Origin: a virus
Strand: one strand, 5' to 3'
IMG/VR virus record: IMGVR_UViG_3300030102_006934
Coordinates: 26,703-90,702 of that record
DNA: 64,000 nucleotides
Position numbers and translations under genes: made by a program. Position 1 is the stretch's first letter; each line of letters begins with the position of its first letter. The notes under the pieces were generated by a model. It was given only the letters and a program-made list of their open reading frames with translations. It did no database searches and was not told the origin of the DNA. Positions 55,917 to 56,288 of the stretch are shown here, piece after piece.

Positions 55917-56288
55917 GGGGCAAAATGGTTATTGATTATTTATAGTCGTGATTAGTAAGCATGCAGTGTTAGATTGGAAACACTTTAATTACCTATCATT
56001 TTTCTTAGATGGAAACGAGTTTGACATCGATGAAAACTTCCTAGATACCGCTTCAGTAGAAGTTGGTACGGGAGAGGTTGCATTCGCCTAAGAGTAATGA
56101 TGATGGTGGTAATCCACCAACCCTCTTTGATAGTAGAGTTTAAAAAATTATCCAGAAGATTAGTTATCAGTAAAACGAACTGTAATAAGGGAACTGTTAA
56201 ACTTTGCTGGGATTAGAAACCAGATAAGCATGTAGAAAACTCTTTATGAGTAAGTAAGACTAGAGTTCGAATCTCTATTGCTCCACTA
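55917..56288 (+). ncRNA. ssrA: tmRNA (transfer-messenger RNA, SsrA)
   Basis: 5' GGGGCAA pairs with 3' TTGCTCC through a G3:U70 wobble (the AlaRS identity element). T-arm TAGAG-TTCGAAT-CTCTA, then discriminator A. A UGGUUAUUGA D-loop analogue follows the acceptor. Internal tag frame (56011-56088) ends ...GEVAFA at TAA 56089-56091, followed by stops in other frames and a GGTGG-taat-CCACC hairpin. Region GC is above background. Confidence 0.65.

Follow-up and report, generated by a model that had tools for sequence, protein, structure and literature searches.

Genes for transfer-messenger RNA (tmRNA, the product of ssrA) were known in phages before the present work. They were described in the cluster C mycobacteriophages (Bxz1 and others), in Bacillus phage G and, as a tRNA-like domain (TLD) only, in DS6A (PMC4131195). 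A survey of huge phages recorded both tmRNA and SmpB (PMC7162821), and the marine megaphage Mar_Mega_1 was reported to have one tmRNA (bioRxiv 10.1101/2021.07.26.453748). This literature lists phage tmRNAs rather than explaining them, and in it we found neither an analysis of the tag peptide nor a clpP(-smpB)-tmRNA arrangement of genes. Here we describe a tmRNA gene at positions 55917-56288 on the plus strand of a 64,000-nucleotide stretch of viral DNA (positions 26,703 to 90,702 of IMG/VR record IMGVR_UViG_3300030102_006934), the whole of which is referred to below as the window. Our principal conclusion, to which we assign a probability of roughly 0.8 to 0.9, is that this gene would specify a working one-piece trans-translation RNA carried by a large marine phage. 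Phage tmRNAs as such are already known; what is new is a conserved long tag found only in phages, together with the clpP(-smpB)-tmRNA arrangement.

Comparison with the one-piece tmRNA of bacteria (Rfam family RF00023) reveals a largely conventional design. The two share the G3:U70 pair, the discriminator A and a TTCGAAT T-loop in the tRNA-like domain, a long helix P2, a pseudoknot (PK1) just upstream of the resume codon, an A at position -4 relative to that codon, and an open reading frame (ORF) without a start codon, whose last residues are small or hydrophobic and whose stop is TAA. The differences are seen throughout the family of RNAs to which that of the window belongs. The tags of this family are 25-26 codons long rather than ~9-13, about three times the usual length, and they end in A-[V/L/F]-A in place of (Y)A(L/M)AA; moreover the genes are carried by phages, CCA is mostly not encoded and the region of PK2-PK4 is divergent. 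A tmRNA of this long-tag type was present in no cellular genome among those of 185,579 species. With the known phage tmRNAs the gene shares its location in a large phage genome among translation-related genes, but neither blastn with the tmRNA nor megablast with positions 50000-62000 of the window gave a single match among 50,697 deposited phage records, and the window is therefore not from a deposited phage.

The tmRNA gene and its phage relatives

A sequence-only reading of the window had called a tmRNA at this position, and two programs uphold the call and agree on its coordinates. ARAGORN reports a tmRNA at 55917-56286 (plus strand), with the tag GNEFDIDENFLDTASVEVGTGEVAFA followed by a stop, as the sole RNA gene of the window, in which it finds no tRNA. 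RF00023 covers 55917-56288 over the full length of the model (positions 1-374 of 374) with a score of 59.7 bits, the gathering score being 47 (E = 7.7e-21), and this is the only gathering-level RNA match in the 64 kb. By direct reading, the 5' strand of the acceptor stem, GGGGCAA (55917-55923), pairs with TTGCTCC (56278-56284), so that G3 (55919) stands opposite U70 (56282), while the T-arm TAGAG-TTCGAAT-CTCTA occupies 56261-56277 and the discriminator A is at 56285. The tRNA-Ala-like domain with its G3:U70 pair, which had been proposed from the letters alone, is thus present at these positions, and it is further supported by covariation in sets of 20 and 62 homologues. After A56285 the genome has CTA and not CCA, as had also been noticed; CCA addition would therefore be needed, and the mature RNA probably ends at A56285, ready to receive it. 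The description of the locus as an ORF-free island of raised G+C content was accurate, as no ORF of at least 50 amino acids overlaps 55785-56378 on either strand and the tmRNA has 36% G+C, compared with 28-33% in its surroundings. The RNA also folds unusually well, with a minimum free energy z-score of -3.1, and none of 100 shuffled sequences folds equally well.

Relatives were collected by a search anchored on ClpP, which is encoded just upstream of the tmRNA, and this yielded 80 IMG/VR loci, numbered here with the prefix L. ARAGORN called a tmRNA some hundreds of nucleotides downstream of clpP in 25 of the 80, and a profile hidden Markov model (HMM) was built from 20 of these RNAs. The HMM scores the window tmRNA at 298 bits and finds full-length homologues in 40 of the 46 loci in which ClpP is at least 58% identical; it finds none in the loci with more distant ClpPs or in the three huge phages discussed below. 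ARAGORN had missed 15 of these 40 (L013, L014, L022-L025, L030, L031, L034, L036, L043-L045, L047 and L048) and in others had set the start of the tag too far downstream (L006, L009-L011, L015, L028, L035, L042 and L046). Phage tmRNAs are thus probably under-counted, and catalogues that rely on ARAGORN are likely to have gaps. A second search used the tag-coding pattern GAAAAYTTYYT-N27-32-GAGNTNGCNNNNGCCTAA, applied to IMG/VR and to one genome from each of 185,579 bacterial and archaeal species. The pattern is present in 64 IMG/VR stretches, and a family tmRNA was found in all 64; in the species genomes it is present in two contigs only. One of these, a 170-kb contig from a metagenome-assembled genome (MAG) labelled 'Methanobacterium sp.' (L084, PLXT01000115.1), carries genes for DnaJ, the metallopeptidase, ClpP, the long-tag tmRNA and a kinase-like protein, and the other, from a 'Gammaproteobacteria' MAG (L085, CAUYTX010000233.1), has the same module plus a Ro-like gene. 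Since the phage module is complete in both, we take them to be mis-binned phage contigs in public MAGs. The family so assembled consists of 62 distinct sequences, 52-80% identical to the window tmRNA, on viral contigs of up to 368 kb, and within the genomes searched it is shown to be restricted to phages. A search of IMG/VR for the exact 24-nt 3' end of the tmRNA gave no match and was superseded by the ClpP-anchored and tag-pattern searches.

The structure of the RNA is under selection. It was tested on an alignment of 20 sequences with a 58-pair structure, the controls being the same structure with partners slid by 1-3 columns and 500 shuffles. Standard pairs occupy 90.8% of the cells, compared with 45-51% in the slid controls, and compensatory double changes affect 40 pairs as against 14-20; none of the 500 shuffles reached the observed values. 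Support is strongest for the acceptor stem, the long P2 helices (99-100% paired), PK1 stem 1 and the T stem. G3:U70 is invariant in 62 of 62 homologues. In this set acceptor pairs 5-7 show as many as 6 pair types, and every member has a canonical T stem, with up to five pair types; in the 20-sequence alignment the T stem is 100% paired and four of its five pairs are compensatory. Helices 2-5, which include the long P2 joining the tRNA-like and mRNA-like domains, are 90-100% paired, and 12 of their 18 pairs have changed on both sides. PK1, at 55965-55998 and directly 5' of the resume codon, has high posterior probability in the Rfam alignment and is made up of stem 1 (AGTGTT/AACACT, 92.5% paired, four covarying pairs) and stem 2 (GAT(T)GG/CC(T)ATC, 85% paired, two covarying pairs). 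The 3' domain, at 56105-56223, takes the place of PK2-PK4 and contains the hairpins GGTGG/CCACC (56105-56118), CTCT/AGAG (56123-56138) and CTGG/CCAG (56207-56223). Across the family its helices 9-10 are 82-90% paired and helices 11-12 just 61-62%, and in the Rfam alignment its posterior probability is low, with many non-canonical positions. The sequence-only reading had placed downstream hairpins in the position of the pseudoknots; the hairpins are real, and inspection suggests that some of them covary within the closest subgroup, but the classical PK2-PK4 topology is not established.

The window is phage DNA throughout its 64 kb, as had been supposed when the tmRNA was described as phage-encoded and as both the gene content and the viral relatives in IMG/VR confirm. 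Its ORFs lie nearly all on the plus strand, are tightly packed and have ~30% G+C. They include genes for a baseplate wedge subunit, a tail-fibre protein, two N-acetylmuramoyl-L-alanine amidases/endolysins, SbcC with a calcineurin-like phosphoesterase, a primase-like protein and a sigma-70-family factor. Strain-level relatives, in which orf84 of the cluster described below is 98% and the tmRNA 97% identical, are found on Tara Oceans and other ENA/Logan contigs that are taken as marine, and the phage is therefore regarded as marine. Huge phages of 540-640 kb are also among the relatives of the window. The best protein matches of the window ClpP are in uncultured phages of 634-642 kb and in Lak megaphages; those genomes were assigned to the 'Mahaphage' clade and predicted to replicate in Bacteroidetes (Al-Shayeb et al., PMC7162821). 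From the predicted hosts of these relatives, the Gly/Asp resume codons, the probable marine sources and the TAnnTTTG promoter described below, the host is probably a marine, flavobacteria-like member of the Bacteroidota. The tags of Bacteroidota presumably begin with Gly, and the resume codon of the window also specifies this residue.

Two readings would deny that this is a functional phage gene. The RF00023 score, which exceeds the threshold of 47 only moderately, and the 15 of 40 family members that ARAGORN missed might be taken as signs of a pseudogene in decay or of a false call by the software. Two independent detectors nevertheless return the same coordinates, compensatory covariation is strong with G3:U70 invariant, and the tag frame is intact in 62 variants that have diverged to 52-80% identity with the window, so that this reading is ruled out and retains virtually no probability. 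It is also very improbable that the gene is not phage-encoded at all, being instead a bacterial ssrA or the copy of the 3' end of host ssrA that a prophage carries at its attachment (att) site. Integrases commonly target ssrA, leaving partial copies of it in prophages, and the two pattern matches outside IMG/VR bear archaeal or bacterial MAG labels. Against this, the RNA is full length and no 3' fragment, the surrounding 64 kb are phage throughout, both MAG contigs hold genes of the phage module (Ro-like, DnaJ, metallopeptidase, ClpP, tmRNA and kinase-like), and the species genomes contain no further match. A bacterial ssrA or an att-site duplicate is ruled out on these grounds.

The tag reading frame

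The tag frame (56011-56091, plus strand) begins at a GGA resume codon and continues for 26 codons (56011-56088, 78 nt), specifying GNEFDIDENFLDTASVEVGTGEVAFA, to a TAA stop at 56089-56091, the final GCC TAA being at 56086-56091. It is preceded by the resume context TTAGAT (56005-56010), in which the A at -4 (56007) is present in 62 of 62 members and corresponds to the functionally critical A86 of E. coli tmRNA. Throughout the family the frame comprises 25-26 codons in the same register and is open in every one of the 62 members, in 60 of which the other two frames are interrupted by stops. The members resume at GAC (44), GGC (14) or GGA (4), and 61 of them terminate with TAA, 1 with TAG.

The tag evolves as if translated. 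The entropies of the three codon positions are 0.65, 0.53 and 1.02, the third being the highest, and residues that are invariant or nearly so are encoded by alternative codons (AAC or AAT for N9, CTA, CTT or TTG for L11, and GCA, GCT or GCG for A24). Comparison of the window with seven environmental strains that are 97% identical to it reveals 10 substitutions, of which 5 fall within the 78-nt tag frame. Four of these five are synonymous changes in the third position (at N2, E3, D12 and T13), and the fifth replaces T with A at the variable residue 20. To the extent that patterns of substitution can show it, selection acts at the level of the peptide. The tag consensus is [GD]-N-x-[FL]-x-[IV]-[DS]-E-N-F-L-x-x-A-x(6)-G-E-[VL]-A-[VLFAY]-A, with N2, F4, E8-N9-F10-L11, A14, G21-E22, A24 and A26 conserved. 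It is strongly acidic, containing on average 5.5 Asp/Glu and 0.13 basic residues, and in the window and its close strains the stretch near the C-terminus reads AGNEFDIDENFLDTASVEVG[TA]GEVAFA. The 62 variants end in AVA (41), AFA (9), ALA (8), AAA (2), AYA (1) or VAA (1). LAA never occurs, and in this the family differs from a degron of the ClpXP/SspB type, as had been noted of the tag of the window.

It was of interest to compare these tags with the AFA-ending tags of the Mollicutes, to which the sequence-only reading had likened the tag of the window. The likeness holds for length, since the tag has 27 residues when the charged Ala is counted, for the hydrophobic, Ala-flanked C-terminus, and for the last three residues of the window tag, which appear to match those of such Mollicutes tags. 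It fails for the family as a whole, in which the consensus end is AVA and AFA is in the minority (9 as against 41), and no sequence likeness is apparent beyond those three residues. That the tag is unusual, as originally claimed, is clear both from its AFA end and from its length, as its 26 codons compare with tags of 11 residues in E. coli and 14 in B. subtilis, and with one of 27 residues in M. pneumoniae (PMC8403727). Tags of comparable length could be documented only in the Mollicutes. The M. pneumoniae tag is degraded by Lon and this organism has no ClpXP (PMC8403727), whereas the phage genes adjoin clpP.

A sister clade (L004, L020 and L021) provides a further comparison. The window tmRNA lies in a slot between the gene for a 133-residue protein (orf133) and that for an FKBP-type isomerase, an arrangement seen also in L004, L005, L007 and L021. 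In the sister clade this same slot holds a different tmRNA of 340 nt (L004 16733-17072; L021 16732-17071), with a canonical-looking tag of 9 codons, GNAEYAMAA. The two clades have the same DnaJ-metallopeptidase-ClpP block upstream, the ClpP of L004 being the closest to that of the window (86%), and the resume context TTAG..GGAAACG is common to both. The sister-clade RNA differs in that CCA is encoded, the promoter box TATATTTG of the window is absent and the RF00023 score is 81.4 bits rather than 59.7; its 3' third alone aligns to the family HMM. Either the long-tag gene has been replaced by a host-like allele, or the reverse has taken place. The sister clade also has an insertion of ~5 kb between clpP and orf133, which starts with an unannotated ORF of ~300 amino acids.

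ClpP, SmpB and possible readers of the tag

The phage ClpP is encoded at 54634-55332 on the plus strand (PF00574, 4.5e-58). Its best PDB match, 1y7o (1.2e-48), extends over the whole mature enzyme, and the motifs GMAASMG, MLHQ and RDNW are aligned, so that those of the catalytic Ser, His and Asp are kept. Judged by these motifs it is a bona fide ClpP with its catalytic triad present. A conserved N-terminal extension of ~37 residues (54634-54744), absent from the solved bacterial ClpPs, could be a propeptide or a docking element. Of 107 tmRNA-bearing loci, a set with some redundancy, 100 have clpP upstream on the strand of the tmRNA, and in 33 the gap is 100-200 nt, about the length of a promoter. 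In L028 and L029 the order is clpP-smpB-orf70-tmRNA, where smpB (10659-11126) encodes a typical SmpB of 155 amino acids and orf70 is a small membrane ORF. In L065 and L068 smpB directly follows clpP (10684-11109) and there is no tmRNA within 10 kb. SmpB relatives are present in 212 IMG/VR stretches, and among the best 80 of these 212 loci none is on a known family contig except for L028 and L029. The three huge phages with the closest ClpP (LR745206, LR756502 and LR756504) differ from the family in having no tmRNA near clpP: ARAGORN, Rfam and the family HMM found none in their 30-kb clpP neighbourhoods, and the linkage of clpP to tmRNA is therefore confined to a narrower clade.

The following mechanism is proposed. 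The tmRNA would be transcribed as a precursor from its own TTGACT/TATATTTG promoter, a leader of ~34 nt would be trimmed, CCA would be added, and alanyl-tRNA synthetase would charge the product with alanine by way of G3:U70 and A73. With SmpB, either that of the host or one encoded elsewhere in the phage, it would enter ribosomes stalled on broken or stop-less mRNAs. Translation would resume at GGA (56011), appending Ala and the 26 residues of the tag and freeing the ribosome, and the acidic tag would then be recognised by a protein, most likely as a degron for an AAA+ protease. Our preferred route leads to a Clp protease composed of the phage ClpP encoded upstream and an unfoldase from outside the window; Bacteroidota have Clp proteases. 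Processing, charging, tagging in vivo and the identity of the protease are the steps that we infer. The existence of a protein reader is suggested by the conservation of the peptide along its whole length, and a Clp-type degron is the leading candidate because the gene is linked to clpP, to chaperone genes and sometimes to smpB. Specific recognition of the tag by a protease that contains ClpP is nevertheless a tentative proposal, whose chances we place somewhat below even.

Several observations weigh against this scheme, or against parts of it. No SmpB gene was found in the 64-kb window by tblastn at E <= 1 with two phage SmpBs and an approximate E. coli SmpB sequence as queries, and no ClpX, ClpA, Lon, SspB or ClpS is present among the ~57 window ORFs scanned with Pfam or PHROGs, so that in order to function the tmRNA would need host factors or genes from beyond the window. 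In the region of PK2-PK4, inspection and a helix scan of 13 close homologues gave hairpins and no convincing pseudoknots; in known tmRNAs these elements are replaceable. The tag end, A-[V/L/F]-A, is not LAA, the ending known to be read by ClpX. The long tag is not indispensable in its slot, since the sister clade has a short, canonical one there. In phages with more distant ClpPs (L001-L003 and L050-L083) the 10-15 kb around clpP are free of any family-type tmRNA, the adjacency of clpP and tmRNA could be an inherited gene order within one phage clade, and synteny within one clade is weak evidence for functional coupling. In addition, the UUCC of the ENFL codons pairs with the GGAG of the GE codons (98.8% paired) in a helix resembling helix 5 of other tmRNAs, and part of the nucleotide invariance of the tag may for this reason be structural rather than peptide-level.

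In an alternative reading the tmRNA works but its tag is unrelated to the adjacent ClpP, serving rescue alone or addressing Lon, FtsH or a periplasmic tail-specific protease, with the proximity of clpP a matter of inherited synteny. We give this possibility a substantial minority share of the probability. The non-LAA end, the distant relatives that have ClpP without an adjacent family tmRNA, the lack of a Clp unfoldase or adaptor among the ORFs scanned and the canonical short tag of the sister clade are all in its favour, and 26-27 residues with a hydrophobic A-x-A end recall the 27-residue, Lon-directed tag of Mycoplasma (PMC8403727). Conservation of the peptide over 62 variants implies, however, that some protein reads the tag, so that rescue alone would be insufficient; no phage Lon was seen; and the clpP-tmRNA gap, often the size of a promoter and in L028 and L029 occupied by smpB, reads as part of a functional cluster. 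The same conservation bears on another, improbable suggestion, that the phage tmRNA is a competitor or decoy which outcompetes host tmRNA for SmpB, EF-Tu and stalled ribosomes. Its tag would go unrecognised by host proteases, or saturate or inhibit them, and would thereby shield the products of the phage or weaken a host response that is coupled to trans-translation. A mere escape tag need not be conserved over its whole length, yet that of the family is, and the neighbouring genes encode a protease and chaperones rather than anti-defence functions. For a decoy it may be said that the tag is unlike the canonical GNAEYAMAA of the sister clade, that the family is restricted to phages, that with no SmpB encoded in the window that of the host would be needed, and that a possible inhibitory role has been discussed for the TLD-only tmRNA of phage DS6A (PMC4131195).

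In its fullest form, which we consider unlikely, the preferred Clp route would amount to a private phage circuit of trans-translation and degradation. The phage tmRNA would take over rescue and append a virus-specific, acidic degron of 26-27 residues that is read by a protease built on the phage ClpP. The blocks [GD]N.F, [DS]ENFL and GE[VL]A.A may be read through a host unfoldase or an unrecognised adaptor, with some members of the family adding a phage SmpB; the idea that the internal [DS]ENFL block is an adaptor site is speculation. Were this circuit real, what becomes of truncated proteins during infection would be decided by the virus and not by the host, and the host-like short tag of the sister clade would be a natural experiment on specificity. 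The existence of the family would not greatly surprise a specialist. Its long, selected, phage-only tag, its linkage to clpP, chaperones and, in one contig pair, smpB and the contrast with the sister clade do, however, make it directly accessible to experiment why large phages carry a rescue RNA and who reads its tag. The tag could also be of use as an orthogonal degron, like the Mesoplasma tag/Lon pair.

Promoter, leader and other genes of the cluster

The candidate promoter of the tmRNA (55848-55878, plus strand) consists of TTGACT at 55848-55853, a 17-nt spacer and TATATT, which lies within TATATTTG at 55871-55878. It has 10 of 12 matches to the sigma-70 consensus and is the top-scoring site in 55300-56900. 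The box matches the -7 consensus of Bacteroidota sigma-A, TAnnTTTG (PMC9723704). In 52 of the 62 family members TAnnTTTG is present 21-74 nt upstream of the mature 5' end, compared with a background of 0.13 per 120 nt in the window, and a TTG is found ~20 nt further upstream. The sequence-only reading had remarked on a -7 box 38 nt upstream of the gene and had deduced from it a processed precursor. TATATTTG does end 38 nt before G1, and the conservation of such a box upstream of the mature 5' end supports an independently transcribed precursor that is processed at its 5' end. The precursor leader (55879-55916, plus strand), presumably removed by RNase P, holds the motif GTTCTTTAA at 55903-55911, which is conserved 6 nt before G1 in almost every member of the family. 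In relatives with long leaders an inverted repeat (for example GTGGGTT...AACCCAC) and then ATATTTATA lie between the TAnnTTTG box and GTTCTTTAA. The motif may serve in processing, as an operator or as a second promoter. The window encodes a phage sigma-70-family factor at 32872-33705 (regions 1.2, 2 and 4; PHROG 351), and the tmRNA promoter could be read by this factor or by host sigma-A.

The remaining genes of this proteostasis cluster are on the same strand. Upstream of clpP are a full-length DnaJ (52398-53453, present in 77 of the 107 tmRNA loci), a phage metallopeptidase-like protein (53732-54151, in 91), orf84 (54151-54405, in 85) and orf73 (54408-54629), with a small membrane protein encoded between DnaJ and the metallopeptidase-like gene in this 52398-54629 cluster. 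orf84 belongs to PHROG 13182, of the function-unknown class. It has 658 environmental homologues, many of them from Tara or other marine sources and none functionally annotated, and nearly always lies directly upstream of clpP; its AlphaFold2 model reaches a pLDDT (predicted local distance difference test score) of 57, a quality insufficient for searching by fold. The product of orf133 (55383-55784, in 25 of the 107 loci), which lies between clpP and the tmRNA, is predicted to have a coiled-coil region and to be anchored in the membrane by its N-terminus, and its gene is ended at ~55801-55839 by a terminator-like hairpin, ATGAGGA...TCCTCATTTTTTTTT, with a run of nine T residues. The downstream neighbour of the tmRNA is the FKBP-type peptidyl-prolyl isomerase (56379-56828; PF00254, 3.1e-20).

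Some further features of these phages may be recorded. A 484-residue protein encoded at 48792-50246 belongs to PHROG 850 ('RNA-binding protein'), carries the Pfam domains DUF2828 and DUF7788 and is possibly Ro60/vWA-like; in 54 related loci this Ro-like gene is conserved at a distance of ~6.7 kb on the upstream side of the tmRNA, and a scan of 47500-58500 gave no Rfam match near it at E <= 1, either to a Y RNA or to another family. Many relatives carry, 2-7 kb downstream of the tmRNA, a tRNA whose anticodon is CUA, which makes it an amber suppressor ('Pyl' in the ARAGORN output), together with several tRNA-Met. The CUA-anticodon tRNAs, found in L023, L024, L030, L032, L036, L037, L043, L046, L048 and L084, suggest recoding of TAG in part of the clade. 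Finally, genes of auxiliary type are scattered around the cluster of the window, at 47188-47628, 50722-51111, 59026-59352, 59468-60040 and 61031-61855; the set comprises a NUDIX hydrolase, a 4HBT thioesterase, an Fe-S cluster assembly protein (PF01883), an S-adenosylmethionine (SAM) methyltransferase and a 274-residue protein of PHROG 200 ('lipoprotein').

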